From: Candidatus Zhuqueibacterota bacterium
GTDB taxonomy: Bacteria > Zhuqueibacterota > Zhuqueibacteria > Thermofontimicrobiales > Thermofontimicrobiaceae
Length of the DNA: 64,000 bases
NCBI GenBank assembly: GCA_049322915.1
Contig: JBMOPW010000044.1
Coordinates: 127,850-191,849 of the forward strand
Direction: 5' to 3'
Below are positions 32,525-64,000 of this stretch, one piece after another. The translations under genes and the position numbers were made by a program. Position 1 is the stretch's first letter. The number at the start of each line of letters is the position of its first letter. Below the pieces are notes generated by a model. The model made no database searches. It worked only from the letters and a program-made list of their open reading frames with translations, and had not been told where the DNA came from.

Positions 32525-32611
32525 TGTCATTGCGAGGCGTTATTTGCCGAAGCAATCTCTGGGGTAAACCACGGGATTGCTTCGTCACAAAAAACGTTCC
32601 TCGCAATGACA
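32525..32611. repeat. Palindromic REP/RPE-type element
   Basis: TGTCATTGCGAGG...CGAAGCAATC...GATTGCTTCG...CCTCGCAATGACA nested inverted repeats. Confidence 0.8.
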
Positions 32612-32638
32612 TTTCCATCTTTTATTGAACTGATACCT

Positions 32639-42954: not shown

Positions 42955-43653
42955 CTAAATCGTCTTTTTATTTCGAATGATCTCTTCGTTGATTTGAGTC
43001 AACAACGATGTAATTTCATTCCTGAACAGGGTCAATGTCGTGTGAGTGAAAATTCTCAGGGCCTGCAATTTGGGAATAGTCAGCAACGAAAGAAACAGGG
43101 AGCGTCGCGCGCGTTTCAATGCCGCCAGAATCAGGCCTGGCTCTGATTCAAGTTTCAGGTCCATGTCATCGTACCCGGCGCGGATGAGTTTGCTCATGGC
43201 CTCAAAAAGCCCGGTCTGGAAAATGATGAGCGGATGATCGCGATGGTTGATTTTGACATGGCGCAGAATTTTCATGATTTTTAAAATGAGCGAATAGCAC
43301 GATTGAAACAAAGGATGGGCATTCTGCAGATGATCCAGACGGGAGCGATCACTGGACCAATCATCAAAGCTATCGTCCCGGGTCTCGTCTGCGATGTCAT
43401 CGTGTTTGTCAATGAAATCGTCCAGAGGGTCAATGCTTTCGGGATTATGTTCATCATCCGAGAGGTGATAACCTAACTCCTCAAAGGCCCGTTGAAGTCC
43501 TTCCTCGGTGAATCCGTATTTATCCAGCAATTCCTGGAGGCGCCGTTTTTGTTCGTCCTCCTGCTGAAAATATTTTTCCCATTTCTGCTCATCCCATTCG
43601 TCATCCGGAATGTACCCATCGTCGAAGTTATCGTTATCAGAGTGGTCTGGCAT
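42955..43653 (-). CDS. Hypothetical protein with acidic N-terminus
   Basis: 232-aa ORF with GGAGG RBS; no recognised domain. Confidence 0.7.
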   Translation of the reverse strand: MPDHSDNDNFDDGYIPDDEWDEQKWEKYFQQEDEQKRRLQELLDKYGFTEEGLQRAFEELGYHLSDDEHNPESIDPLDDFIDKHDDIADETRDDSFDDWSSDRSRLDHLQNAHPLFQSCYSLILKIMKILRHVKINHRDHPLIIFQTGLFEAMSKLIRAGYDDMDLKLESEPGLILAALKRARRSLFLSLLTIPKLQALRIFTHTTLTLFRNEITSLLTQINEEIIRNKKTI

Positions 43654-44115
43654 AGCAATTCCTCCATGTCATTTTTGCTACGTAAGAATATACACTTTAA
43701 TCGATTGGAAGGCAAGGAAAATATTGTATTTTTAAAATTACGCTCACACATGAGGTCTCAATAACACGTGGAGAATTAGAATCGATCTTTTCACATTTCA
43801 TAAGTGATGTCGCCTATCATTCCTCTACGGCGGATGGTGGTACAGCATTGAAATAAACAACACGTAAACATACTTATTCTATTACAAGTAAGTCTTAGAT
43901 AAGTCTCATACAAAGTCCCCATGCTCGCAAGGAAAAGAAGAATCAGACTCATCACAATTTTCCTTCGCATCCTCGGTTGTTGAAAAAATATGTGTGCAGC
44001 GTTTTCCTTGGAAATAATTCAGAGAGTGATTGAATTCGTAGATCATTTCAATTATCAAAACCATCTGCCGAATGATTAACAAACGCTCGGCTTTTCAAAA
44101 ATCTTCCAATACAGC

Positions 44116-44144
44116 TTGATTTCTACATTTTTTCGTGCTATAAT
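44116..44144 (+). promoter_or_regulatory. sigma70-type promoter
   Basis: TTGATT-17 bp-TATAAT with extended TG. Confidence 0.7.
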
Positions 44145-44190
44145 ATCCGTAAGAAAAAGTCAAAGCGCTAAAATCTGCAGCCGAAAAAAA

Positions 44191-44260
44191 TAAGCCAGAG
44201 ACAGAACCCGAATCGGACTCGTTACATAACTTTTTATGGGGGAGGGGATTTGGGTTTTTT
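44191..44260 (+). promoter_or_regulatory. Conserved leader with terminator-like hairpin, copy 1
   Basis: TAAGCCAGAGACAGAACCCGAATCGGACT; AACCCGAATC pairs with GATTTGGGTT, then a T run. Confidence 0.7.
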
Positions 44261-44322
44261 ATTTCTGTCGGTTGTTAACAGGCAGTACGCAGCAGGTTAA
44301 AAAACTGATCCTGCAGCGGTAA
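44236..44322 (+). pseudogene. Orphan C-terminal tail remnant (mini-ORF ending YFCRLLTGSTQQVKKLILQR*)
   Basis: Matches the last 20 codons of the gene ending at 53896. Confidence 0.65.
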
Positions 44323-44351
44323 TAAGAAATGATTCGTATAGGAGGATTTTT

Positions 44352-46031
44352 ATGTCCCGAGAGATAAACAAACCATTGACACTTTTTATTGTTATGATTT
44401 TTCTTTTAATTTCAGACCGACCCCAATCTTTGAGTCAATCGGCTCAAAGTGATAGAGAAAAGCAGCAACTAAACAGATTGACTCAATTGCAGGCCAACCA
44501 TCTTGACATCATTACTTCTATCGAGCGACATGGCGAGCCCTACAGCCTCTTTGCATTATCGGTGGCAGGCATTGGAGATATTAATCTGGATGGCTACGAT
44601 GATATCATTGTCGGAAATCCCTACAAGGGCGCCGGAGAAGCCCTGATTCTTTTGGGTGGCGCCGAGATGGATTCTATCCCCGATATTATTTTAAGAGGCG
44701 AAAATGATGGCGATGGATTTGGAGAAAAGGTCGCTTCGGGTGGTGATATCAATGGGGACGGTGGCCCGGATTTTATCGTGTCGGCGCCTGATTTTCCAAA
44801 TAGAAAAGGAAAAGGGAGAGCATATATTTATTTTGGCGGAGCAATTCTGGATAGTATTCCTGACGCCATTTTCACAGGCGAATTGAATTACAGCAACTTA
44901 GGAAGAGCCTCAATTGCCGTTGGGGATGTGAATGGAGATCAGTCCGATGACATGCTGGTTGGTGCCCCAAATTATTTGACAATCACAAGTCGAGGTAAGG
45001 CCTATCTTTATTTTGGCGGAGCTTTATTGGATAGCATTCCCGATTGGATGAATCAGGGAGACTCGAGCCGGGCATTGTTCGCATTTACACAATTGGCCAT
45101 AGGAGATGTCAACGGCGATGGATTAGCCGATCTTTTGATCAATAGCTCTCCTGACATTGGTGAATTGGGAAAAGATCATCTTGTAGTCACAGAAATATTC
45201 TTCAGCGGCGTAGAAATGGATACCCTCAGCGATTTATCCCTCACTGATAGTAGCTCGGGAAATTATCAGAATCAAATCCTGTTGTGTGATGACTTAAACC
45301 TAGATGGCGCAGATGATTTTGTTATTTATATGATTGATCGAGTAAGAGTCTATTTTGGCGGAGCGGATATAGACACGACAGCAGACTCTTATTTGTTGCC
45401 ATGGTATGGGGCGTCCATTAATCGCATCGCTTCAGCGGGTGACGTTAATGGCGATGGCTGGCTGGATATTCTGGCTGGATTTTATCACTTGTACTTTAAA
45501 ACGGCTTCCTGTGGACTTTACCTGGGGAGCCAAAAAATTGATCCAACAGTCGATTGGACTGCCGGAGGAGCTGGTGTTTCATTAGACGGCGCAGGGGATG
45601 TAAACGGCGATGGGTATGATGACATTATTGTAGGAATGTACAGTTCTCCTTATACATCGGTTGCCTGGGGCGCCGCCTGGATTCTGGCGGGTAAAGCCGA
45701 TTTGCAGGATATTCGCTCCAACGTGCGGCAGATAGAGCCGTCCGCGCCGCCGGACAAGCACATACTATTTCAGAATTACCCCAATCCGTTTAATGCCGAG
45801 ACTACAATTCGCTACCAGTTACCCCAGGCGTCAGCGGTAACCCTGACCATTTATAATCTCCTCGGTCAACAAATCCGGCGATTAGTAAATGAAAGACAAC
45901 TTGCCGGCAATTATTCAATTATTTGGGATGGCCGAGATGAGCAAGGGACAATTTTAGCCAGCGGGATTTATATCTACCGCCTCGAAGCCGGCTCGTTTGT
46001 CTCCAGCAAAAAGCTGGCGCTGGTGCGGTAG
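44352..46031 (+). CDS. Secreted FG-GAP (integrin-alpha-like) repeat protein with FlgD-Ig/Por-type tail
   Basis: Repeated GD(I/V)NGDG..D.IVGAP units; QNYPNPFN tail; AGGAGG RBS. Confidence 0.92.
   Translation: MSREINKPLTLFIVMIFLLISDRPQSLSQSAQSDREKQQLNRLTQLQANHLDIITSIERHGEPYSLFALSVAGIGDINLDGYDDIIVGNPYKGAGEALILLGGAEMDSIPDIILRGENDGDGFGEKVASGGDINGDGGPDFIVSAPDFPNRKGKGRAYIYFGGAILDSIPDAIFTGELNYSNLGRASIAVGDVNGDQSDDMLVGAPNYLTITSRGKAYLYFGGALLDSIPDWMNQGDSSRALFAFTQLAIGDVNGDGLADLLINSSPDIGELGKDHLVVTEIFFSGVEMDTLSDLSLTDSSSGNYQNQILLCDDLNLDGADDFVIYMIDRVRVYFGGADIDTTADSYLLPWYGASINRIASAGDVNGDGWLDILAGFYHLYFKTASCGLYLGSQKIDPTVDWTAGGAGVSLDGAGDVNGDGYDDIIVGMYSSPYTSVAWGAAWILAGKADLQDIRSNVRQIEPSAPPDKHILFQNYPNPFNAETTIRYQLPQASAVTLTIYNLLGQQIRRLVNERQLAGNYSIIWDGRDEQGTILASGIYIYRLEAGSFVSSKKLALVR
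45771..46031 (+). repeat. 261-bp C-terminal module, copy 1
   Basis: About 15 differences from 51439-51699 by manual alignment. Confidence 0.92.
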
Positions 46032-46146
46032 GCTCCAGAATCTTCTTCAGCAAAAGATTATCACAATGCTTGAAAAAGCCAATGGCTAAAAGCTATCCGC
46101 CTGAGGCGTTTAAAATTCTGGATCGTGAAAATTTTTAAAATAACAT

Positions 46147-46176
46147 TTGACTTTTATTTTTTTTTTTTATTATAAT
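46147..46176 (+). promoter_or_regulatory. sigma70-type promoter with a T12 tract in the spacer
   Basis: TTGACT-18 bp-TATAAT. Confidence 0.65.
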
Positions 46177-46223
46177 GATGTGACGATAAGCGACGATTGT
46201 AAAAGCTGAATCAGAAACAGCAT

Positions 46224-46295
46224 TAAGCCAGAGACAGAACCCGAATCGGACTTGCCATAATTTACATAAGGGGGAGGATTCGGGTTTTTATTTTT
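46224..46295 (+). promoter_or_regulatory. Conserved leader with terminator-like hairpin, copy 2
   Basis: Same 29-nt core; AACCCGAATC/GATTCGGGTT perfect stem, then a T-rich tail. Confidence 0.7.
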
Positions 46296-46362
46296 AATCA
46301 TACTAATTTATAGATTAAACACAAAAGTAATTTTTTATCCATATCAAAATAAGGAGATTGAA

Positions 46363-47070
46363 ATGGTTACTATGCGACATAAAAAAATTGTTGCCCTTGT
46401 TACCCTAATTATCATAAGTTGTTTTTTGAATTATACAAGCCATGGACAAGAGCAATGGATTCCTTTCACCAGTTATACCCAATCGAGACCGATTTTCAGC
46501 TTACATTATTCTAATAATGAAAACGTCTCGTTTTCTGTAGAAACTACCGGAATGGTCGTACTTGACGTTCTGGCGCAAGAGAAAACTTATCAAAGGTTGG
46601 CCATACCAGACCAGAATAAGTCCACAGGCGTCGGATTTCCTGAAATACCGGTGATCAGCCAATTAATTGCTATACCTGAGTGCGAGCAGGTCTTATTAAA
46701 AATAATTCCTATCGATTCAGTTTACATGGAAGATTATAATGTCTACCCTGTTCCGCAGATCGTCGAAAAGTATTATCCTGATGGTTACTCATATCCTGCC
46801 GAAGAATTTGCCATTAATGACAGCGTCTATTCGGTGGACCACTACTATCCAAATTCATTTGGTAAAATCGCTGAGTTGGCAAGTATAAGAGAGCAACAAG
46901 TTGCCAGAGTAGAAATTTATCCCATTCAGTTTAACCCTGTAGCAAATAATTTAAAGGTTTATACACATATTAAAGTTGGACTCAATTTTGTATCCCCGAA
47001 AAGTGCAGTGGTTAAAGACGTGGGACCGTTCTACAAAGCCTGCAGAGCAACTATTTTGAATTACAGATAA
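46363..47070 (+). CDS. Stand-alone C25 (gingipain) propeptide-domain protein
   Basis: Signal peptide; YQRLAIP, GFPEIPVISQLIAIP, IREQQVARVEIYPIQFNP...LKVY; AAGGAG RBS. Confidence 0.8.
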   Translation: MVTMRHKKIVALVTLIIISCFLNYTSHGQEQWIPFTSYTQSRPIFSLHYSNNENVSFSVETTGMVVLDVLAQEKTYQRLAIPDQNKSTGVGFPEIPVISQLIAIPECEQVLLKIIPIDSVYMEDYNVYPVPQIVEKYYPDGYSYPAEEFAINDSVYSVDHYYPNSFGKIAELASIREQQVARVEIYPIQFNPVANNLKVYTHIKVGLNFVSPKSAVVKDVGPFYKACRATILNYR

Positions 47071-47087
47071 CTTTAGGAGGTTTGAAA

Positions 47088-48440
47088 ATGTGGCGCACTA
47101 AGTTTTTAATACCATCAGTCATTTTTGCTTTATTCAATTTTTTTCAAGCCATCAATTTATATGCCCAGGGGTCATGGAAAATCATCCGACAAGATACACT
47201 AACTATATATACTGACATGGATTTTGTTGATAAGAATAATGGCTGGGTCATTGGATATAGTTTAGCTACCGTAGGAGTGGAAGCGGCCGATGTCATTATT
47301 CATACCAGTGATGGTGGCGAAACCTGGGAATATCAAAAATTCAGAACCGGAGGGCGTCTTTTTGCCTTGAATTTTATGGATTCGCTACATGGGTGGGCAC
47401 TGGCATACAATGGAGTGATACTACATACTAAAGACGGTGGTAAGAAATGGGACCCAGATTCGAGCCTTTACCAGCAGTGGTGGAAGCCGTGGTGGAGAGC
47501 TACCGACATATACTTTGTTGACACGTTGAAAGGATGGGTGATAGGCAATAATCCACAAGAAATATATCACACACAAAACGGTGGTAAAACATGGATCCAT
47601 CAGTATACCGGTGGAAGCGAGGACGGTTTCTCCACAGTTTTTTTCTTAGATTCTTTAGTAGGCTGGGTCAGTGATCGAGGTAAGATTCTACATACTGAAG
47701 ATAGTGGTAGGAATTGGATAAAGCAATATGTAGCGACAGATTCATTGTACTTCGGAAGTATCTATTTTATCAATTCACAATTAGGATGGATCGTTGGTGT
47801 GGGCCTTCCTCGCAATATAATTTTAAAGACCTCTGACGGCGGTCAATCATGGGAGGTTACGCCTATTGGATGGGGCTTTGAATTAGGGGGAATTTGTTTT
47901 GTAGATAGTCTTCATGGCTGGATTGCTGGCGGTCCCGTTGGAGGTTGTGTTTTGTATACCAATGACGGTGGAAAAACTTGGACTTCACAGGACACGGGGA
48001 TGGGCGAAGGTTTACTTCTTCGTTCGGTATGTTTCATCGATTCTTGTACTGGATGGGCAATGGGACCTGTAATATGCTCCGACATTACTAAGGTGCTAAA
48101 GTATACTTGTAGTTCCAGTAGCATAGACAACAATACACTGAATAACCCTATTTGTCCGGGTACTTTCAAGTTGCTTCAGAGTTATCCTAACCCCTTTAAT
48201 TTGGAAACAACAATTCGGTTCTACAATCCTCAGGCTGCTCGCATTAGTGTTGCCATTTATGATATTGGCGGACGATTGGTAAAAAGTTTGATTAGTAACG
48301 AAATGCTCTCTATAGGTTATCATGAGGTCCGCTGGAGCGGTAGAGACCAACAAGGAAATGTAGTTCCTAGTGGCGTTTATTTGTGCACGCTTAAGTCAAA
48401 AGAAAATGTTAAAGCAATAAAGTTAGTAGCCATCAAGTAA
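47088..48440 (+). CDS. YCF48/BNR-repeat beta-propeller protein with FlgD-Ig/Por-type tail
   Basis: Repeated F.D...GW..G...I.HT.DGG.TW; QSYPNPFN tail; AGGAGG RBS. Confidence 0.9.
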   Translation: MWRTKFLIPSVIFALFNFFQAINLYAQGSWKIIRQDTLTIYTDMDFVDKNNGWVIGYSLATVGVEAADVIIHTSDGGETWEYQKFRTGGRLFALNFMDSLHGWALAYNGVILHTKDGGKKWDPDSSLYQQWWKPWWRATDIYFVDTLKGWVIGNNPQEIYHTQNGGKTWIHQYTGGSEDGFSTVFFLDSLVGWVSDRGKILHTEDSGRNWIKQYVATDSLYFGSIYFINSQLGWIVGVGLPRNIILKTSDGGQSWEVTPIGWGFELGGICFVDSLHGWIAGGPVGGCVLYTNDGGKTWTSQDTGMGEGLLLRSVCFIDSCTGWAMGPVICSDITKVLKYTCSSSSIDNNTLNNPICPGTFKLLQSYPNPFNLETTIRFYNPQAARISVAIYDIGGRLVKSLISNEMLSIGYHEVRWSGRDQQGNVVPSGVYLCTLKSKENVKAIKLVAIK

Positions 48441-48469
48441 ATTTTAAAGAGTAAAGAGAGGGTCGAAAA

Positions 48470-51400
48470 ATGATAGCCAACACTCTAACAATAGGTATTG
48501 TCAAACGTATTCAGCTTTATATCATACTAATAGCTGTTTTGAGTTTTACACGTGGAATCATAATCATGAACCCCGAAGCCCAGGCGGGTGTTATTCGTTG
48601 TTCTACAGTCACGGCTTGCGCGACTAACAAGACCGACTATCTGATGATGGTCGCCAATGATCTCTATAACAATTCCTACATCGATAACCTTGCTAACCAT
48701 AGGGCAAGTTACAACGGATATAACATCGCCATCGTGAATGTTGAAAACATGACAGGATTTCCTTTCGACACTTTGGGAATTCGTGATTTTATCAAAGGTG
48801 TATATGAAACGCAAAGTGCACAACACATGAGTGATGGCGTTTAGGATTCGTTCTTCTTATAGGCGATGCATATAAAGACGACAATGCAACCAGAATGCTC
48901 TGGGATTATGATGCGTATAACTATTTGAACCGTCGTCCGCAAGAAGAGTGTGCCGATCATTTTTATGCCTGTCTAACATTCAGCGGATCACGACCTGATG
49001 ATTTACCAGATGTCATGATCGGGCGTTTATCTGCAGGGAATGCGACTGAACTCGCTAATGTTGTTAATAAGATCATCAATTATGAAACCGCTTATGCAGG
49101 CGGGGATTGGCGGGATGATATTTTGCTTTTTGAAGGTCAGGGTCTTGCTGGTTATAGTCAATTTAACAGCATTGACGATTACCTCCAAGCAGAATCCCAA
49201 ATTACCCACTTTTTATACCGATATGAGCCTGCTCACGCCGACGCAGATTTTATGATTCGTTATAACGATGTTTATCCTCCACCAACTACCAATATAGATG
49301 ATGCCACACAGAAGCTTATTGCCGAATTCAATGCAGGTAGATTCATTTTTAATTACGAGTGTGATCATGGCTCTAAGTTTGGATTTCATCCGGATGGAGA
49401 AGGCCATTGTTACACCTATTTCGACGTTAATGATATTCCAAGCCTTGCCAATGGTGCAAAACTCGCCTTTTGGCTGAACGTTTGTTGTAAAACGGGTTGG
49501 TTTGATAATCTCGATGTAGATCCTTGTTTTGGTAGTAATGTAGATTGCTTAGCTGAGCAATTACAATATGCCAATAATAGAGGCGGCATTGCTGTTTTAG
49601 CTTCATCAAGAGATGATGCTACTGGCTCCTATGGTGTCGTTGACAAATATGTCTATGAAGCGATATTTGATAAGGATGGTTATAATTATAATTATAATGT
49701 TGATCTGATTGGCGAAGCAATTTTGCAGGCAAAATTTAGATGGGAATCCTGGCTAAGGCATAAATATAATTTATTTGGTGATCCATCCCAAAATCTTTTT
49801 CCCCAAGGGCTCCGCAGCACAATTTCCGAAGCTACAGCATATAATAATAGTCGGAAGCTTCTTCGTGATGCAAATGGAAGATATCATTTAGTGTATGAAT
49901 CTAACGGTGAAATATTTTACCAATACTCTGTGAATGGGAACGGATGGATAGGTGGATTTAGGCTTAGCACTGGCAATGGAAACAACAAATATGCCTCCGT
50001 CACCGGTACCAGCAGCAAGCAGTTTGTGGTCTGGCAACGGTATACAGGCTATAGCGGCGGTCTGCATAGATACGATACCTACTTTGCTAAAAACACGGGC
50101 ACGGGCTGGTACACCAGCACCATTGCCAATCTCTCTAACCTCGGTTTTTCTACGCCAACCAATTCTTTGCCAGTAATAACTTACAAGAACGTGAGCGGTG
50201 TTAATCGTCTTATTGTCTGCGCTAAGACAAGCTCTGCCATTAAGTACGTCACTTCTGATAATGACGGCAGCACCTGGAGTTCGGCTGCCAATGTACCTTC
50301 CACCTCATCCAGCCATGCCAATCCCAGTTTATCCATGGGACCAACCACACCTGCCAGTACTATTTATGTCAGCTATGATAACGGCAGTAATGTTTACTAC
50401 AATAACTACACCACGGCCTGGGGCAGCGCTGTCAATGTCTCCAACGGCTGTGGCACCTCCACGAATCGTTATTCCTCGGTAGAGGTCGATGGTAGTTCGG
50501 GCAAAAATTTTGTCTGGCAGGGGTATTCCAATCCTGTGGAGCTATGGGTGATTATGCACCGCCGCAATAGTGAAGCTTTTCAGATGTTTTATCCCTACGG
50601 TGGCGAGGGTAGCTATCGTCCTTCGATTACTGGACATGCCAGTAATAAGCGCTCGATCGTCTGTTATGATGATCTGAATCAAATCCGCCGCGCTTATTTT
50701 AATGGCAGTAGTTGGTCGGAAACAGTAGCTGCGACCAATGGGGTCCATCCTGGATTATCTGCGGGCACGACTGCCGCCAAATATGTTTGGACCAGCGGCA
50801 CGGTTTCACCCTATGAAATCAAAATCAGCACTGAACAATTGTCTAAAAGTAACTTTGAGAACATCGTCTATCATCGTGCGAGCGTGCTGCAGGATACCGC
50901 CAACAGTTCATTGTTGTGGGTCGAATTGGGCGAGATCAAGCTGGTAACAGGAACGATCGAATTGGAGCTTCCACAACTATCAATCCAGAACCAAAACCTA
51001 TCACTGACACCAGCGACAGCCTTTCAGTATCTTGATAGTGAGCTATTTGTTATCCCTGACGAATCGACAAATTTAGCCTGGTATCAAAATATCTATGGCG
51101 CTGGTTTACAACGACTGACAGCGGCGGATTCACAGAATTTAGTTATCAAAGTTCAACTCCTCGAAGTCGGAAGCAGTAACACAATAACGACATTGCAAGA
51201 AGAGTCGCTTGCTGCAACAACTGAGGAAAGCAGGAATAAAGGATATATGACCCAGGATATTTCTGATCATCGAGGCAAGCATGTAAAACTGACGGTAACA
51301 GTAGAAGGGTTAGCGTCCAAATTAGCAGGGATTGTCCCTGGCGTGACTGAAATATATCTTATTAAAAAAGAAGGTGTTGGTAAAGAACGACCAGAGTTAT

Positions 51401-51699
51401 TAACCAATGAGCAACAGCCTGCAGATTTTGTATTATGGCAGAATTACCCCAATCCGTTCAATGCCGAGACTACAATTCGCTACCAGTTACCCCAGGCGTC
51501 AGCGGTAACCCTGACCATTTATAACCTCCTCGGTCAACAAATCCGGCGATTAGTAAATGAAAGACAACTTGCCGGCAATTATTCAATTATTTGGGATAGC
51601 CGGGATGGACAAGGGACAGTTTTAACCAGCGGCATTTATGTCTATCGCCTCGAAGCCGGTTCGTTTGTCTCCAGCAAAAAGCTGGCGCTGATTCGATAG
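48470..51699 (+). pseudogene. C25 (gingipain-like) cysteine peptidase with BNR-like region and tail, interrupted by a 1-nt frameshift near 48838
   Basis: DYLMMV...LANHR...IRDFI in the first frame; LGFVLLIGDA, PDVMIGRL, DHG, CCKTGWFD and YNLFGDP in the second. Confidence 0.8.
51439..51699 (+). repeat. 261-bp C-terminal module, copy 2
   Basis: About 11 differences from 57362-57622 by manual alignment. Confidence 0.92.
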
Positions 51700-52040
51700 G
51701 TGTATGACAGCCTGCCCAAAAAATCCTGACCAGCGTGATGAGTCTGCATCCCTATTGTGAACGGCTGGCGCAGGGACGGTGGATATTAAAGTAGCAGCCA
51801 ACTTCAGCGGCGCGAGCCGCATCACCGATGTCGATAATGACGAAGTTGATAAAATTTTGGAGAGTTGATTTTTGGTCGGAAAATAGTGCTGACAAATTGA
51901 AGCCCCATTGATTCGTTGGGACTTTTTTTTGAAAGGCTGGCTAGTAAAAAAAATCTTCAAATACAGCTTGATTTCTATATTTTTTTGTGCTATGATATCC
52001 GTGAGAAAAAGAGAAAGCGCGAAAAGCCGAAGCAGAAAAA

Positions 52041-52110
52041 TAAGCCAGAGACAGAACCCGAATCGGACTCGTTACAGAATTTTTTATGGGGGAGGGGATT
52101 TGGGTTTTTT
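52041..52110 (+). promoter_or_regulatory. Conserved leader with terminator-like hairpin, copy 3
   Basis: Same 29-nt core and stem as copy 1. Confidence 0.7.
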
Positions 52111-52172
52111 ATTTCTGTCGGTTGTCTACAGGAAGCACGCAGCAGGCAAAAAAACTGATCCTGCTGCGGTAA
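52086..52172 (+). pseudogene. Orphan C-terminal tail remnant (mini-ORF ending YFCRLSTGSTQQAKKLILLR*)
   Basis: CGCAGCAGGCAAAAAAACTGATCCTGCTGCGGT is identical to the end of the gene at 53896. Confidence 0.7.
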
Positions 52173-52201
52173 TAAGAAATGATTCGTATAGGAGGATTTA
52201 T

Positions 52202-53896
52202 ATGTCCCGAGAAATAAACAAATCATTGGTCATTTTTATCATTTTGATTCTTCCTGCAATTTCAGGCCGAGCCCAATCTTTGAATCAATCGGTTCAACGT
52301 GATAGAGAACAGCAGCAGTTTAGCAGGCTGACTCAATCGCAAGCCAATCAGCTTGACATCATTACTTCTATCGAGAGACACGGAGAGCCTTATAGCCTAT
52401 TTGCATTATCAGTGGCTGGGATTGGCGATATTAATCTGGATGGCTTTGATGATGTGATCATAGGAAATTATTACAAGGGAGCAGGAGAAGCTTTGATTTT
52501 ATTTGGAGGAGTAGATATGGATTCTATCCCCGATATTATTTTGCACGGTGAAAATGAGGGAGATGGATTTGGTGAAAAGGTCGCCTTCGGCGGTGATATC
52601 AACGGTGATGGTGATCCGGATTTTATCGTGTCGGCACCTGACTACCCAAATGGAAAAGGAAAAGGGAAAGTATATATTTATTTTGGCGGGTCAATTCTGG
52701 ATAGTATTCCTGACGCCATTTTCACAGGTGAATTGGATCACGGCAACTTAGGAAGAGCCTCCATTGCCGTTGGAGACATGAACAATGACAGTTGTGATGA
52801 TATATTAGTGTCCGCGCCCAATTATTGGCCAGTCTTCAGACTTGGCAAGGTATATCTCTACTATGGGGGGGCTTTGTTGGATAGCATCCCCGATTGGAGC
52901 AATCAAAGCGATACTCTAAGATATTACTTTGGTGAGCGTCTGGCTACAGGTGATGTCAATGGTGATGGTTTGAAGGACTTGTTGATAAATAGTACTCAAG
53001 ATATTAATGAACCTGGTCACGATTATCTAGTCCACACTGAAATATTCTTTAATGCATCCAAAGTGGATACCTTGAGTGATCTTATCCTTACTGACAGCAG
53101 CCCCGGGAATATGCAAAATCAGATCCTGTTGTGTGATGACTTAAACCTGGATGGCGCTGATGATTTTGTTATCAGAATAGATAATAACACAGGTATTTAT
53201 TCGAACATTTTTTTTGGCGGTGCAGATTTGGACACAATTGCTGATGCTTATTTAATCCCATGGCCTGGAGTGGGCATTAATCGCATCGCCACTGCTGGTG
53301 ACGTTAATGGCGATGGCTGGCCGGATATTCTGGCTGGGTTTTATCATTCCTTCTTTCAAACGGCTTCCTGCGGTCTTTATCTGGGAAGTCAAAAAATTGA
53401 TCCAACCGTGGATTGGACTGCCGGAGGCGCTGGTGTTTCAGTGGACGGCGCCGGGGATGTAAACGGTGACGGCTATGATGACATTATTGTGGGAATGTAC
53501 AGTTCTCCTTATACATCGGTTGCCTGGGGCGCTGCCTGGATTCTGGCGGGAAAAGCCGATTTGCAGGATATTCGCACCAACGTACGGCAGTTAGAGCCGT
53601 CCGCGCCGCCGGACAAGTATACGCTATTTCAGAATTACCCCAACCCTTTTAACCAACAAACGCGAATTCGCTACCGTCTCAGTTCTAAATTTGAAAAACA
53701 GGTAGCGATAACTATTTACGACATCAACGGAAAGGAGGTGAGCAAGTTAACTGATGAGCAGCAGACACCCGGCGAGCATGAAGTCGTCTGGGATGGCAGA
53801 GATCAACAAGGAAAGGAGGTGAACAGCGGAATGTATCTATGTCGGTTGTCAATCGGCAGTGCGCAGCAGGCAAAAAAACTGATCCTGCTGCGGTGA
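52202..53896 (+). CDS. Secreted FG-GAP repeat protein, paralog of 44352-46031 with a different tail
   Basis: MSREINK start with AGGAGG RBS; FG-GAP repeats; QNYPNPFNQQTRIRY...KKLILLR. Confidence 0.92.
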   Translation: MSREINKSLVIFIILILPAISGRAQSLNQSVQRDREQQQFSRLTQSQANQLDIITSIERHGEPYSLFALSVAGIGDINLDGFDDVIIGNYYKGAGEALILFGGVDMDSIPDIILHGENEGDGFGEKVAFGGDINGDGDPDFIVSAPDYPNGKGKGKVYIYFGGSILDSIPDAIFTGELDHGNLGRASIAVGDMNNDSCDDILVSAPNYWPVFRLGKVYLYYGGALLDSIPDWSNQSDTLRYYFGERLATGDVNGDGLKDLLINSTQDINEPGHDYLVHTEIFFNASKVDTLSDLILTDSSPGNMQNQILLCDDLNLDGADDFVIRIDNNTGIYSNIFFGGADLDTIADAYLIPWPGVGINRIATAGDVNGDGWPDILAGFYHSFFQTASCGLYLGSQKIDPTVDWTAGGAGVSVDGAGDVNGDGYDDIIVGMYSSPYTSVAWGAAWILAGKADLQDIRTNVRQLEPSAPPDKYTLFQNYPNPFNQQTRIRYRLSSKFEKQVAITIYDINGKEVSKLTDEQQTPGEHEVVWDGRDQQGKEVNSGMYLCRLSIGSAQQAKKLILLR

Positions 53897-53929
53897 ATAA
53901 TAATTGAATTTTAACAGGAGGTTTTGGCT

Positions 53930-56900
53930 ATGAGAACAAAACAGTTGCTTTCAGCAAAGCAGTGGCTGTCGAGCTTATTCTTTGTGTTACTTCCCTTAGT
54001 GGAAGTAATAGCCCAGCAATTCCCTATTGGCACTTATTGGGTGGCAACAGATCGCGAACGATATGATCAATATCCCCAGGTCGCTGATTGTGGTATCAAT
54101 ATTATTTCCGGAGGTAATTATAATGGCGTATCGCCCCTGCCTAACATTTTAGCGGCAGCCGAGGCATCAAACATCACTATGTTGATTAGCGGTATTAATG
54201 GAACGGATTCTCTTCAGTGGTATGGAGGAAGTCAGAGTGGTTACGATTCTTACCGCGCATATCGTTTGCCCTATGAATCCGATGGTTATCAACCAATACC
54301 TGAATTACAGACCATAGAACATACACTCATTTATGATTTTTCTCATGCAGTGGGTGAGCCATTGCAAGAGGGTGGAAAAACGGTATGGCGAGCTACGCCA
54401 TCTCAAGGCCCGGGGCTTTTGCTGCATGCCTACGACGACAGCGAATGGCAGCATCTGGGCTACACTTACCTTGCGACCTTCGTTTTAAAGGTCGATAACA
54501 ACAGCGGTCATGTTCTGGTTGCTACAGTGCGGATTGTTGAGGGAACAACCAATTTGGTTGATGAGCAAATTTTTTCCGATAATTTTACCGCCAATGGCAC
54601 TTACCAGGAATTTGAGTACGAATTCACCACCAGCGGCAGCTCTCTTTCAGGTGGCGGAGAAAGTGAAGACGATATTACCAGCATGCTTCCAGAAGGTAGC
54701 ACCGAATCCACGATGCAAGTGGCTCTGGATTCTCTGGATTATCAGGTGGAATACCATGGCAATCGAACGCTGACAGTTGATCGCGCAATCATTGAAAACC
54801 GCTGGGGAGATCGACTGTACGACGGGCACAAAGATTCCGACCTGTTAGCTGATGTACAATGGGCGTTCAACCAGGATGGCGGGGATCCGACGATTAGAGG
54901 ATTCTACACGGATGAGCCACAAATAACCCGTATTGATCCAATGCGGTATGTCAATAATTTGATAGGGCCAATAACACCCTCAAGGTTCGGCTTTCGTGAA
55001 ACAGTTCAGTCGACAGTTTGTATAGATTATGTTTTTAATCAATATTTAAATGCTGGTCTTCCTGTTAATCAGGATCATAAGCTTTTAGTGGATCGTTATC
55101 CTATAGAATATGGAGCCCCGGAACCTGGTGATCCGAATTATAATAATTATATTCAGGGTAGATGGGATGGCTATTTGATCCCGTTTCTATCGGACGCAAA
55201 TTTTGTATCATCGCTCAATGGAAAGCCATTTTGGTACGCGGTACAAGCCCATAGTTGGGATCTCCCTAGCCAACAGTGGCATCGAGATCCTGCTCCGATT
55301 GAGATTCGCTGCATGGCTAATTTAGGCGTTGTGTACGGAGCAAAGGGAATATTCTACTTTCTCTACACTTCAATCCGATCAACTTATCCTGCATATGAAG
55401 GAGCAATTGGTCTGGTAGATATTAATTTTAATCACAACTACGAACCTTATCTATCCAAGTGGAATGAAGTGCAGCAGATAAATGCCAACCTTCAATATAT
55501 GGCTTCTGACTTACTGTCATTGAATTGGCAAAGTGCCTTCACTTCCGGCGATGCGGTTCCTGATGGCAGTGTCGTGCAAAGCATCACCGGAGGTGATTAC
55601 ATTGAAATAGGCAATTTTACACACCAAACTTCAGGACATCCTTACATTATGCTTGTCAATCGTCGTTGTGAAGCAACAGACACACAGACCATATCTGTCA
55701 CCACAAATAAAACAGATCAGCCTTACCAAATTGAAGACAAATTAACCGGGGAGTGTTATGTAACAAGTGACGGCATCTTTCGAAATATTTCATTAGAAGC
55801 GGGCGCCGGCAGGCTCTTTGAAATGACACCAGTATTTGATACGAATGAAACGTGGGACTATCTGATAAATATTTCCAGTGATGTTACGATACCAACATCA
55901 AAGGTTTTGACAATTACATCAGGTACGACTATCAAATTCGCTTCAGCCACCGAACTAAAAATCAACGGCACACTCAACGCCTATGGCACTTCTGCCAATC
56001 CCATTACATTCACCAGCGCCAGTGCTTCGCCTGCTTCCGGTGACTGGGACTGGATCAAATTCGATGGCGGTACAGGAACTGTTCAATATTGCGATATCGA
56101 ATACGCCAAATTCGGTTTGTGGTTTTATGGTTCGTCAACCAATCCGACCGTAACCAATTGTTCAGTTAGGAACTGTTCTTACTACGGCGCCTATTTTCTC
56201 AATAACAGCGCTACCACGTTTCAGTATAATGATTTGAGTGATAATTCACTGCATGGGTTGCTGTTGATTACTTCCAGTCCGACTCTGCTAAATGTAACTT
56301 CAACCAATAATAGCAGCAACGGACTTTTTTTGAGCAACTCCTCCCCCAAAATCGGTTCCATCGATACGACCTTTAGTCAGCAGAGTCAATTTGCTGATAA
56401 TACATCAGACGGAATTTATTGTTCAGGTTCCTCGGGCAGCCATCCCTGGATTTACCGCAACAGTGTTTCAAATCCTTATGGTGGTTACACGCAAATTATC
56501 GACAATGGCAGCGACGGTTTGACAGCGATACAAAAGTCTCATCCCATTTTAGGTTCTTCTGCTTCTTCGCAGGGGAATAACAGCATTTATGGTAATTCTG
56601 CTTATCAAATCTGCAACAATAACAGCGATTATTCCATCTATGCTCGTCATAACTGGTGGGGATCAGCCAATGGATATCCTGCTGGTTCGTTTTACGGTAC
56701 CGTAGTGGCGGTGCCATATTTGACATATCAGCCTGGTGTTGGGGTTTCCAGCAGCCCTAATTTTGTACCCGCGATGGCGTCGAATGAGACCAGCAGAGCA
56801 GCAGACAGCCTTATTGAAAACGGAGAAGAGCTGATGATTCAGGGAAAATATGAACAAGCGGTGCCACTGTTTATTCAGACGACTCATGAGTTTCCGGAAT

Positions 56901-57622
56901 CAGCCGAAGCTCGGCAAGCGCTGAGCAGCCTCGTGCTTTGCTACCGTGAGATGGGACAGGCGAATGAAACACTAATGATGCTCGACCAATATGCTGAAGC
57001 TTACGCGCAGCAGCAAATCGGTTCCTGGGCATTGAACCTTTCGTTGCCGATTTTGGAATTGCAGGGAAAATATCACAGCTTTATCGAACGATGTAACCTG
57101 TTGCTTACGGAGTTTTCCGAACATGAGAGCGTCTCCGATTATCTGCTTTTTGATTTGGGTATGGTTTATAAATATGGCGTAAGCGACATGGAATCGGCAA
57201 AACGGTATTTTGAGGAATTTATCACTGCCCAGCCGCACGATCCTTTGACAGAAATCGCATTGGTTGAAATGAATACCATCGGTTCTCCCCAGCTATTCAA
57301 AGGAAAACCAGCAGAACAAAAAACTGCAAGCGATCATACTCTCTTTGACTTTGAGTTCTTTCAGAATTATCCCAATCCGTTCAATGCCGAGACTACAATT
57401 CGCTACCAGTTACCCCAGGCGTCGGCGGTAACCCTGACCATTTATAACCTCCTCGGTCAACAAATCCGGCGATTAGTAAATGAAAGACAACTTGCCGGCA
57501 ATTATTCAATTATTTGGGATAGCCGGGATGAACAGGGGACAGTTTTATCCAGCGGCATTTATATCTATCGCCTCGAAGCCGGCTTCTTCGTCGCCAGCAA
57601 AAAGCTGGCGCTGATTCGATAG
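53930..57622 (+). CDS. Large secreted multidomain protein (possible glycosidase-like barrel, right-handed beta-helix, TPR, tail)
   Basis: Signal peptide, FPIG, GFYTDEP, YGAKGIFYF; GTSANPITFTS...GDW and beta-helix repeats; A..NWWG; TPR; QNYPNPFN. Confidence 0.85.
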   Translation: MRTKQLLSAKQWLSSLFFVLLPLVEVIAQQFPIGTYWVATDRERYDQYPQVADCGINIISGGNYNGVSPLPNILAAAEASNITMLISGINGTDSLQWYGGSQSGYDSYRAYRLPYESDGYQPIPELQTIEHTLIYDFSHAVGEPLQEGGKTVWRATPSQGPGLLLHAYDDSEWQHLGYTYLATFVLKVDNNSGHVLVATVRIVEGTTNLVDEQIFSDNFTANGTYQEFEYEFTTSGSSLSGGGESEDDITSMLPEGSTESTMQVALDSLDYQVEYHGNRTLTVDRAIIENRWGDRLYDGHKDSDLLADVQWAFNQDGGDPTIRGFYTDEPQITRIDPMRYVNNLIGPITPSRFGFRETVQSTVCIDYVFNQYLNAGLPVNQDHKLLVDRYPIEYGAPEPGDPNYNNYIQGRWDGYLIPFLSDANFVSSLNGKPFWYAVQAHSWDLPSQQWHRDPAPIEIRCMANLGVVYGAKGIFYFLYTSIRSTYPAYEGAIGLVDINFNHNYEPYLSKWNEVQQINANLQYMASDLLSLNWQSAFTSGDAVPDGSVVQSITGGDYIEIGNFTHQTSGHPYIMLVNRRCEATDTQTISVTTNKTDQPYQIEDKLTGECYVTSDGIFRNISLEAGAGRLFEMTPVFDTNETWDYLINISSDVTIPTSKVLTITSGTTIKFASATELKINGTLNAYGTSANPITFTSASASPASGDWDWIKFDGGTGTVQYCDIEYAKFGLWFYGSSTNPTVTNCSVRNCSYYGAYFLNNSATTFQYNDLSDNSLHGLLLITSSPTLLNVTSTNNSSNGLFLSNSSPKIGSIDTTFSQQSQFADNTSDGIYCSGSSGSHPWIYRNSVSNPYGGYTQIIDNGSDGLTAIQKSHPILGSSASSQGNNSIYGNSAYQICNNNSDYSIYARHNWWGSANGYPAGSFYGTVVAVPYLTYQPGVGVSSSPNFVPAMASNETSRAADSLIENGEELMIQGKYEQAVPLFIQTTHEFPESAEARQALSSLVLCYREMGQANETLMMLDQYAEAYAQQQIGSWALNLSLPILELQGKYHSFIERCNLLLTEFSEHESVSDYLLFDLGMVYKYGVSDMESAKRYFEEFITAQPHDPLTEIALVEMNTIGSPQLFKGKPAEQKTASDHTLFDFEFFQNYPNPFNAETTIRYQLPQASAVTLTIYNLLGQQIRRLVNERQLAGNYSIIWDSRDEQGTVLSSGIYIYRLEAGFFVASKKLALIR
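57362..57622 (+). repeat. 261-bp C-terminal module, copy 3
   Basis: Near-identical to copies 1 and 2. Confidence 0.92.
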
Positions 57623-57863
57623 AAATTCAGCCGCGGCTAAAAAAATTCGACCGGCTCACCGGGTTGTTACAGTCATTTCGGGCGTATTGCCCAGGCACAC
57701 TGTTTGACAGATGGTGCTGGCAGAGGGTGCAATTGCAATACCAACGGTCGCCAAATGCAAATAGAGAGGCTTCCTAAAGCAGCGTAGAGGTGATTGATAG
57801 TTTTTTCGGGTGAGTTCACCAAAAGAAAATAAGACTGATTTTGATTTACTTCATTTAGAAATT

Positions 57864-57948
57864 TGGTGCCGAAGGCGGGATTCGAACCCGCACACCGCTA
57901 GGCACTACCCCCTCAAGATAGCGTGTCTGCCAATTCCACCACTTCGGC
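57864..57948 (-). tRNA. tRNA-Leu (GAG)
   Basis: GCCGAAG/CTTCGGC acceptor stem, CTATC-TTGAGGG-GGTAG anticodon arm, long variable arm, GGTTCGAATCC, encoded CCA; follows secG. Confidence 0.97.
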
Positions 57949-57957
57949 AACAGAAAA

Positions 57958-58338
57958 TTACTTGCTGGTATCGGCCTGAGTCGGAGCTCCCGCTGGTGCA
58001 GTTTCTCCTGTAACGGATCCTGCATCCTGTACTGTTGGCAACACCGACGCCGGTGAAGAAAGCCGCCTTTGTTCCAATTCTTCGGCAACGACATTCTGGT
58101 CAACCCGCTGGCCTTTATCCACGTAACTGATGAGCAAAGCAAATCCTAAAAAGATGATTGCTAAAACTGTGGTCAGTTTGCTCAGGAATGGCGCTGCGCC
58201 TCGTCCCCCGAACACAGCGCCCATACCGCCGCCACCGCCAAAAACACCGGCCATACCGCCGCCTTTACTCGATTGCAGCAGGATTACAATCATAAGAACG
58301 ATGGAAACAATCACGTGTAAAATAATCAAAAAGGTCAT
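57958..58338 (-). CDS. secG: Preprotein translocase subunit SecG
   Basis: ILLQSSKGGG...FGG...LSKLT; two TM helices. Confidence 0.95.
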   Translation of the reverse strand: MTFLIILHVIVSIVLMIVILLQSSKGGGMAGVFGGGGGMGAVFGGRGAAPFLSKLTTVLAIIFLGFALLISYVDKGQRVDQNVVAEELEQRRLSSPASVLPTVQDAGSVTGETAPAGAPTQADTSK

Positions 58339-63861: not shown

Positions 63862-63946
63862 TAACCCGCATTCTTCATTGTATTTTTAAAGGAAGCGGGA
63901 TAACCTGAATGGTGCATAAATTTAAAATTCGAATATAAAACTGAGT
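63862..63946 (+). repeat. Non-coding motif, copy 2 (copy 1 at 3629)
   Basis: 47/54 nt identical to 3629-3682, plus TATAAAACTGAGTT. Confidence 0.75.
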
Positions 63947-64000
63947 TTGATTTTGCATATACATTCACACATTATGAAAACATAATGTTAAGTTGGGCTA

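Follow-up and report, generated by a model that had tools for sequence, protein, structure and literature searches.

The final 64 kb of a 192-kb contig (hereafter the window, 64,000 nucleotides [nt] in all) in the metagenome-assembled genome of a Candidatus Zhuqueibacterota bacterium (G000; 6.25 Mb, 45 contigs) contains a 14.1-kb island of genes whose products end in sorting tails of the kind used by the type IX secretion system (T9SS). Three of these genes have unrelated bodies and end in nearly identical DNA, which we call tail A. The analysis indicates that the island is a lineage-specific array of T9SS cargo genes, which ordinary homologous recombination between sorting-domain DNA probably assembled and continues to reshape. 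Proteins were named by Pfam profiles over the 46 open reading frames (ORFs) of the window, and the one close relative compared was a genome of the same genus (G001), in which the island is absent. The features on which the argument rests are as follows.

43735..57863, + strand: island of T9SS cargo genes, 14.1 kb, between an acidic-protein gene (42955-43653, - strand) and tRNA-Leu
44352..45770, + strand: body of FG-GAP-1 (FG1), Pfam FG-GAP 6e-36, 84% identical to the external protein P0121 and 78% to FG2
45771..46031, + strand: tail A copy 1 (A1), end of FG1, standing in place of the family's ancestral B-type tail
51439..51699, + strand: tail A copy 2 (A2), end of the C25/stalk gene, possibly the native host of tail A (weak evidence)
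52202..53896, + strand: FG-GAP-2 (FG2), an FG-GAP body with the family's ancestral B-type tail (53630-53896)
53924..57361, + strand: beta-helix/TPR body, identified by Pfam, starting 27 nt after tail B of FG2
57362..57622, + strand: tail A copy 3 (A3), end of the beta-helix/TPR gene

A repeat finder returned a 276-nt block three times (45756-46031, 51424-51699, and 57347-57622), and the shared module within it comprises 258 coding nt plus the stop codon, about 86 residues. The genes that carry it span 44352-46031 (FG-GAP), 48895-51699 (Peptidase_C25), and 53924-57622 (Beta_helix/TPR); Pfam identified FG-GAP, Peptidase_C25, and Beta_helix with TPR in the three bodies, among which no mutual blastp high-scoring segment pair was found at E<=1e-3. 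The description in the first-pass annotation of three unrelated genes ending in the same 261-bp module is confirmed by the repeat finder, alignment, blastp, and Pfam. Its figure of 94-96% identity agrees with A1-A2 (15 differences over the 258 coding nt, 94.2%) and A2-A3 (11 differences, 95.7%) and is slightly high for A1-A3 (19 differences, 92.6%). Similarity opens at CAGAATTA(C/T)CCCAA, which codes for QNYPN, and closes at the stop codon, with dissimilar flanks. These limits, also proposed earlier, are borne out by the alignment and by identities in 30-nt bins, which rise from a background of 18-58% to 98-100% at the CAGAATTAY codons and fall to about 40% just past the stop. Differences among the copies are concentrated in the last third.

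Only these three full copies of tail A exist in the 6.25-Mb genome, and a search of 5.8 billion proteins with tail A returned the three window proteins at 93-100% identity and a next best match at 67%. Synonymous divergence (dS) among the copies is 0.09-0.22, compared with 0.74 between the FG1 and FG2 bodies. Because of this low synonymous divergence and the distance to the next best protein, recent common DNA, and not convergence, is the explanation that we adopt for tail A.

The tail had been described as a sorting-like domain of the FlgD-Ig/Por type, and both Pfam profiles exceed their cut-off of 27 bits over the last ~80 residues of the three proteins (PF13860 FlgD_ig, 36.5-40.6 bits; PF18962 Por_Secre_tail, 27.0-29.6 bits). 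Tail A, which ends in KKLAL[IV]R, is a T9SS type-A C-terminal sorting domain. The genome also encodes SprA/Sov (a 2048-aa frame at 893.6 bits, over the cut-off, with neighbouring matches in frame) and PorV (133 bits, with 15 further matches over the cut-off), while the GldM profile TIGR03517 had no match in the genome and was equally silent in the control. Hydrophobic N-termini are visible in FG1, FG2, the beta-helix protein, and two further island products introduced below, the BNR protein and the C25 propeptide ORF.

Direction of tail exchange in the window and across the genome

Homology between FG1 and FG2 extends from 44097/51949 to about 45785/53644, after which the two genes carry different tails, A and B, respectively; the earlier observation that the paralogs are colinear up to the motif and then diverge holds in the alignment. 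The start previously given for the second FG-GAP ORF (51908) was over-extended, as alignment with FG1 puts the real start at 52202. Identity over the homologous stretch is mosaic (52-97%), and the two genes were duplicated together with the upstream 255 nt. Beyond P0121 (84%) and FG2 (78%), the relatives of the FG1 body include five further proteins at 56-64% identity. The B-type tail, which is two residues longer than tail A, occurs on all six external FG-GAP orthologues and on FG2, and the identity of the external B tails to that of FG2 (82, 60, 60, 60, 50, and 53%) falls in step with body identity. Among the eight aligned members of the FG-GAP family, FG1 alone carries tail A and all others carry B, so the tail of FG1 was replaced, with the junction within QNYPNPFN. 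Scanning a collection of genome contigs with the FG-GAP alignment gave 74 loci, all of them generic FG-GAP at <=45% identity, and no related island.

This picture is further strengthened by the sorting tails of the whole genome, which were collected with a hidden Markov model (HMM) iterated from the six window tails. The model, self-built and not curated, found 222 ORFs with such a C-terminus, some of which, such as ones on contig C11, escape Pfam at E<=0.001. The 24,531 tail pairs of the genome have a median nt identity of 54-56%, against which the likeness of the three A copies goes far beyond chance, and just 16 pairs reach at least 85%. These comprise 15 of the 185 same-contig pairs within 10 kb, all 15 on the same strand, versus 1 of the 24,346 far pairs. 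Near pairs are bimodal, being either >=86% or <=73% identical. The C20 and C45 pairs, two of the 16, represent simple partial duplication of a gene and show 94-95% identity through the last 419-489 residues of the body. The remaining five groups, listed below, have bodies that are either unrelated or share 33-64% amino acid identity; their high-identity tract opens with the module, or some 66 nt before it in one group, and closes at the stop codon. The genome-wide comparison of tails with bodies, suggested in the first-pass annotation, reveals near-identical tails on unrelated or diverged bodies, nearly all of them neighbours.

Three window genes
Three genes at C14:385800-392444
Four genes at C26:170109-184244
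Two genes at C14:802736-816716
An inter-contig pair, C14/C3

The last of these (C14:360548-364396, + strand, and C3:128747-130402, - strand) is the sole near-identical pair on different contigs, with 92% identity overall and 100% over the first ~140 nt. Its bodies are unrelated, and one of them is a distant paralogue of the beta-helix protein.

The C14:385800-392444 cluster, whose gene order is unchanged in G001, provides an orthologue control. Nucleotide identities between the tails of its genes (gA to gD) are as follows.

G000 gC tail versus that of its G000 neighbour gB: 94.2%
G000 gC tail versus that of its G000 neighbour gA: 91.8%
G000 gC tail versus its positional orthologue in G001: 56.6%
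gB orthologue tails, G000 versus G001: 81.1%
gD orthologue tails, G000 versus G001: 87.2%

Since the gC tail is closer to its neighbour than the gB orthologues are to each other (81.1%), these identities indicate that a gB-type tail overwrote the gC tail in the G000 lineage after the species split, with gene order fixed. Judged from the alignments, the cluster is a case of concerted evolution by gene conversion.

A separate observation on T9SS cargo concerns the PorV family (PF19572): 17 of its 19 matches follow a same-strand ORF found by the sorting-tail HMM, at a distance of 88-414 nt. At C11:3800-23700 (L128), triplets of a TonB-dependent receptor, a large protein, and a PorV-like barrel are repeated, and in two of the three triplets examined the large protein has no Pfam family at E<=0.001. 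This arrangement suggests dedicated PorV-like partners for some cargos.

Organization of the island

Synteny with G001 contig C19 runs up to window position 43734 and resumes at 57864. Where G000 has the island, the contig carries only some 1.1 kb, including a TPR gene without a G000 orthologue; the array is therefore lineage-specific. The island has a GC content of 43.4%, the genome 48.8%, and tail-bearing genes a median of 51.2%. Its neighbours are housekeeping genes, with purL/purQ-like genes and a formyltransferase gene on one side and secG, tpiA, gap, and fba on the other. A search of the left edge of the island revealed no direct repeat of the tRNA-Leu end, and an Rfam scan of 43600-58000 returned only the tRNA.

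57864..57948, - strand: tRNA-Leu(GAG), its 3' end facing the island

Outside the island, a ~93-nt element at 63862-63954 recurs at 75-85% identity in at least 35 places on many G001 contigs; it is a dispersed short repeat and was not called as a tRNA. The stretch at 32526-32612, between two minus-strand genes, matches three other G001 contigs over 37-87 nt at 78-97% identity.

Within the island, a promoter-leader module and a relic of the B-type tail recur at the following positions.

44116..44262, + strand: promoter-leader copy 1, TTGATT-17-TATAAT with TG, leader hairpin and U-run, covariance model R1 145 bits
44264..44351, + strand: non-coding B-type tail-end relic, spacer, and ribosome-binding site (RBS), upstream of FG1, repeat family D4
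46147..46296, + strand: promoter-leader copy 2, TTGACT-18-TATAAT (11/12), leader hairpin, upstream of the C25 unit
51968..52112, + strand: promoter-leader copy 3, promoter-like site and leader hairpin
52114..52201, + strand: second B-type tail-end relic, spacer, and RBS, upstream of FG2

The promoter-leader module, a strong promoter-like site with a conserved hairpin, has three copies in the island and none elsewhere in G000, and the island appears to consist of three transcription units, each headed by one copy. The tail A genes are all last in their putative unit, which is 1 of 10 possible arrangements and not significant. Both relics resemble the last ~55 nt of a B tail and are homologous to the end of tail B of FG2 together with the 27-nt spacer before the beta-helix gene; upstream of FG1, HMM positions 66-84 were matched at 44257-44313. 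Because the relic is homologous to a real tail-B end with its spacer, FG1 and the beta-helix gene occupy equivalent slots, each preceded by a B-tail end, spacer, and RBS and closed by tail A. The beta-helix gene, which starts only 27 nt past tail B, is probably co-transcribed with FG2. No orthologue of it closer than 42% (partial) was found in 30 relatives.

Beyond G000, the promoter-leader was located at L121:904-1026, L123:1501-1623, L124:1501-1620, and L125:475-589 (- strand). The first of these loci came from a metagenome scan with the leader motif and is a 1170-nt contig that holds the module without a tail. Three other genomes of the same family have it once each (83.6, 47.5, and 37 bits), and it was not found in G001 or in 36 other relatives searched. 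It mostly lies just upstream of a secreted-protein gene. The leader hairpin, ~70 nt long with a U-run, has no match in Rfam; 93% of its cells pair, compared with at most 67.5% when the partners are slid, and three pairs are compensatory, making it a candidate attenuator or small RNA. In a genome of another genus of the family (G013:C78), a gene with an A-like tail (L124:2-808) lies ~700 nt upstream of the single promoter-leader copy, which is followed by another tail-bearing gene. Given this arrangement in G013, the adjacency of tail A and leader, seen twice in the island, may be old.

The gene that ends in A2 belongs to a C25 peptidase gene in pieces, as the following features describe.

46363..47070, + strand: C25 propeptide ORF, Propeptide_C25 6.9e-24, first piece of the split gene, collinear with P0078 residues 4-229
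47082..48440, + strand: complete BNR/Ycf48-like propeller gene between the C25 pieces, having its own RBS and a different sorting tail (48177-48440)
48470..48844, + strand: N-terminal fragment of the C25 catalytic domain, Peptidase_C25 profile positions 5-63, matching P0078 277-353
48895..51438, + strand: remaining C25 catalytic domain and a ~540-aa "stalk", from Pfam and homologue comparison

The pieces are collinear with P0078, an intact C25 homologue of 1260 aa. The catalytic fragment ends in a frameshift near 48835, with which a contig of the sequencing run X1 (see below) agrees at 0 differences, and the downstream fragment opens with a hydrophobic, signal-peptide-like stretch. The stalk spans residues ~307-845 of the C25 protein. 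External proteins match it in the corresponding region at 32-62% identity, and five of them (P0241, P0242, and P0245-P0247) bear Peptidase_S8 heads; different protease heads thus appear on one stalk. A further stalk homologue, P0251, is named as an M6-like metalloprotease. The tails of six stalk homologues are 43-62% identical to tail A, about tracking body identity, while generic tails reach 67%. This tracking, a weak sign, suggests that the C25/stalk gene was probably the donor of tail A.

Favoured mechanism and alternative explanations

In the mechanism that we favour, each cargo gene ends in a module whose first (QNYPNPFN) and last (KKLxLxR-stop) codons are conserved, so that neighbouring tails in the same orientation would offer short homology arms. 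Gene conversion, or unequal crossover or deletion between two tails, would then place the tail of one gene on the body of another; for example, a unit ordered FG-B-spacer-body-A would become FG-A by losing its middle. FG1-A1 may accordingly be a conversion patch or the outcome of a deletion between the motifs of adjacent tails. Selection would keep products with an intact body and an intact tail, which would explain why the shared tract coincides with the module. The pathway would be of the RecA type, with no dedicated recombinase involved. The two non-coding relics of B-tail end and spacer are supporting footprints of such tail-based rearrangement.

Several observations weigh against this mechanism or narrow it. 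Only short homology joins tails A and B, some 24-26 nt at the motif and, by our own reading, roughly 15 of 27 nt at the 3' end, so the first exchange between diverged tails would not have been a textbook RecA event. The sharp limits of the tracts may reflect selection rather than mechanism. Breakpoints also lie outside the tails, at the leader/relic junction, at start codons, and where the BNR gene sits within the C25 gene, and recombination is therefore not limited to the tails. With 15 differences from A2 and 19 from A3, A1 misfits the simplest deletion from a unit of FG-B followed by the beta-helix gene and tail A. Tails of cluster C26 show 88-95% identity whether compared within a genome or between the two, and conversion is not proven by that cluster. 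Moreover, the single close relative is without the island, and the history of tail A has no outgroup. Overall, the proposal in the first-pass annotation that the tail serves as a site of recombination or gene conversion stands for the FG1 replacement, the local pairs, and the C14 overwrite, but not as an exclusive role, considering the breakpoints elsewhere.

A broader version of the idea, which we consider rather unlikely, is that sorting tails in T9SS-rich bacteria act genome-wide as portable homology arms, forming a cassette system free of any recombinase. Each body would lie between the tail of the previous gene and its own, and bodies or tails would be exchanged by the general recombination of the host. 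If true, such a system would build strain-specific islands of surface proteins, leave tail relics as its footprints, and be the mirror image of the junction-motif swapping in polymorphic toxin loci.

Among the alternatives to recombination between tails, segmental duplication with illegitimate fusion, in which unrelated bodies were joined de novo to a duplicated tail segment, is improbable, with some observations in its favour. Segmental duplication in the island is clear from the threefold promoter-leader, which occurs only there, and from the duplication of FG1 and FG2 with their upstream 255 nt, and the S8 heads on relatives of the C25 stalk show that fusion at domain borders occurs. Tail A similarity, however, ends at the first codon of the module and at its stop in all pairs with no shared flank, as expected for exchange between pre-existing modules and not for copied segments. 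In addition, since tail B was present in the FG-GAP family beforehand, FG1 would have had to exchange a tail rather than gain one, and the C14 case is likewise the replacement of an existing tail.

We give very little credence to a dedicated, integron-like or otherwise site-specific cassette system in which recombination would take place at the tail or at its QNYPNPFN-coding start; an integron-like array was the proposal of the first-pass annotation. In its favour, the FG1 and beta-helix bodies lie between conserved flanks (B-tail end, spacer, and RBS on the left, tail A on the right); the array is also absent from the same-genus genome and lies beside a tRNA gene, and a whole BNR gene with its tail sits inside the C25 gene. 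Nonetheless, as had been noted from the letters alone, the window has no recombinase gene: Pfam found no integrase, transposase, or other recombinase family in its 46 ORFs, the rest of the genome not having been searched. An inverted-repeat scan of tail A and its flanks revealed only a weak 70% palindrome and nothing attC-like in or after the tail, no attC covariance model having been applied. There are three promoter-leader modules rather than one Pc promoter, the left edge lacks a direct repeat of the tRNA end, and no alternative joints occur in the X1 contigs. Near the end of tail B, a 9-bp perfect hairpin was observed.

Codon choice in the motif was also considered as a DNA-level anchor for recombination and rejected. 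The first proline of YPNPF is CCC in 79-88% of G000 tails versus 24% in bodies, and by hand count in 78 of the 100 tails listed in G001 and 27 of the 50 listed in G009. Across 3,065 long ORFs of G000, however, CCC makes up 25% of proline codons overall and 53% before Asn, where CCT falls to 4%, and in Y-P-N contexts elsewhere in the genome it reaches 65% (n = 106). The preference in the motif (65% vs 79-88%) is largely a general effect of context-dependent codon use, with a modest excess left.

An assembly or polishing artefact, in which similar tails were collapsed or mis-joined, might be suspected in a 45-contig metagenome assembly whose three tail A copies have exact runs of up to ~72 nt in common, and all the more because the sole run that holds the sequence is probably the source itself. 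This public run (X1; 98% of sampled words held) was compared as contigs assembled independently at k=31 and not as reads, and rare junctions or circles are invisible in such contigs. They cover 45900-51477, 53865-57400, and 57501 onward with 0 differences at an even depth of 53-74. The junctions from tail to downstream sequence and from body to tail, the nesting of BNR in C25, and the frameshift are all present; alternative joints or circles are absent from these contigs. Some small X1 contigs enter or leave the tails within their first ~33 nt, a behaviour to be expected from other motif-bearing genes. Two further runs (X2 and X3) held next to nothing of the region. Every tail A copy carries private differences in both of its halves, the longest exact run common to FG1 and FG2 is 45 nt, and the independently assembled G001 has the same tail pattern in cluster C26. 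The assembly across the array is sound, and an artefact is a most improbable source of the pattern.

Least credible of all is selection for an exact tail, by convergence or extreme purifying selection without DNA exchange: although the tail A genes are all last in their putative units (not significant, as stated above) and a common tail could suit one shuttle protein, synonymous sites are near-identical (dS 0.09-0.22, with other tails at ~54% nt identity), an identity by which selection as the sole cause is refuted. Moreover, non-synonymous changes make up roughly half of the altered codons (5-6 of 10-17), and the tail protein is accordingly not under unusually strict constraint.

Relation to known systems

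The favoured reading of homologous recombination between sorting-domain DNA implies that a T9SS export tag evolves as a module that can pass between unrelated neighbouring genes, here with a direction and an orthologue control, and such passage would imply that tails are functionally interchangeable among cargos. Tail similarity is consequently unsafe for inferring the relatedness of cargos, and repeats of 260 nt are a hazard for metagenome assembly. The five independent groups in G000 are usable for measuring conversion tracts in T9SS cargo.

The pattern itself is already known from the KLIKK proteases of Tannerella forsythia. The KLIKK report describes a cluster of proteases from unrelated catalytic classes whose T9SS C-terminal domain (CTD) is almost identical and which the closest relative lacks; its authors suggest that existing protease genes became fused to common terminal sequences (PMC4404884). 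The window array is alike in that unrelated secreted proteins with a near-identical CTD are clustered and absent from a sister taxon. It differs in that the genome belongs to another phylum, the cargo is FG-GAP, C25, and beta-helix rather than six proteases, and the tails end in KKLAL[IV]R, not KLIKK. Furthermore, no ORF for a small lipoprotein (inhibitor) precedes the window genes, unlike the potempin genes that have been described (PMC9890683), and the present analysis documents the direction of one replacement along with a genome-wide local pattern. A full-text search of the literature for T9SS tail conversion as such found no paper.

For RgpA, Kgp, and HagA of P. gingivalis, domain rearrangement has been described and homologous recombination or gene conversion invoked (PMC5266723). 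The likeness lies in T9SS cargo with a conserved CTD and a combinatorial modularity of neighbouring domains. There, however, adhesin domains and alleles between strains are involved, whereas here a sorting tail moves between unrelated neighbours.

Polymorphic toxin loci (CdiA-CT, Rhs) swap modules at a conserved junction motif and accumulate orphan modules. The island resembles them in that a short motif divides a constant from a variable part and relic fragments lie nearby. The constant part here is C-terminal, however, with the cargo N-terminal, and there are no toxin/immunity pairs, so the island is not a member of that class. Integrons are recognized by intI, attI/attC sites, and promoterless cassettes expressed from one Pc promoter. 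The window shares with them a same-orientation array of diverse genes in a variable spot, but it has several promoters, no intI among its 46 ORFs, and no attI site or attC-type repeat that could be found.

Interlocus gene conversion leaves the paralogous segments of one genome more similar to each other than orthologues from different species are. Cluster C14 shows exactly this relation (gC 94.2% identical to its neighbour versus 56.6% to its orthologue), and the sharp tract edges and the dependence on proximity and same orientation are further likenesses. The difference is that the shared domain here sits on non-homologous genes and the tract is bounded by the domain, not by decay of homology. 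The array is a clean new example of a known process and points to no new mechanism.

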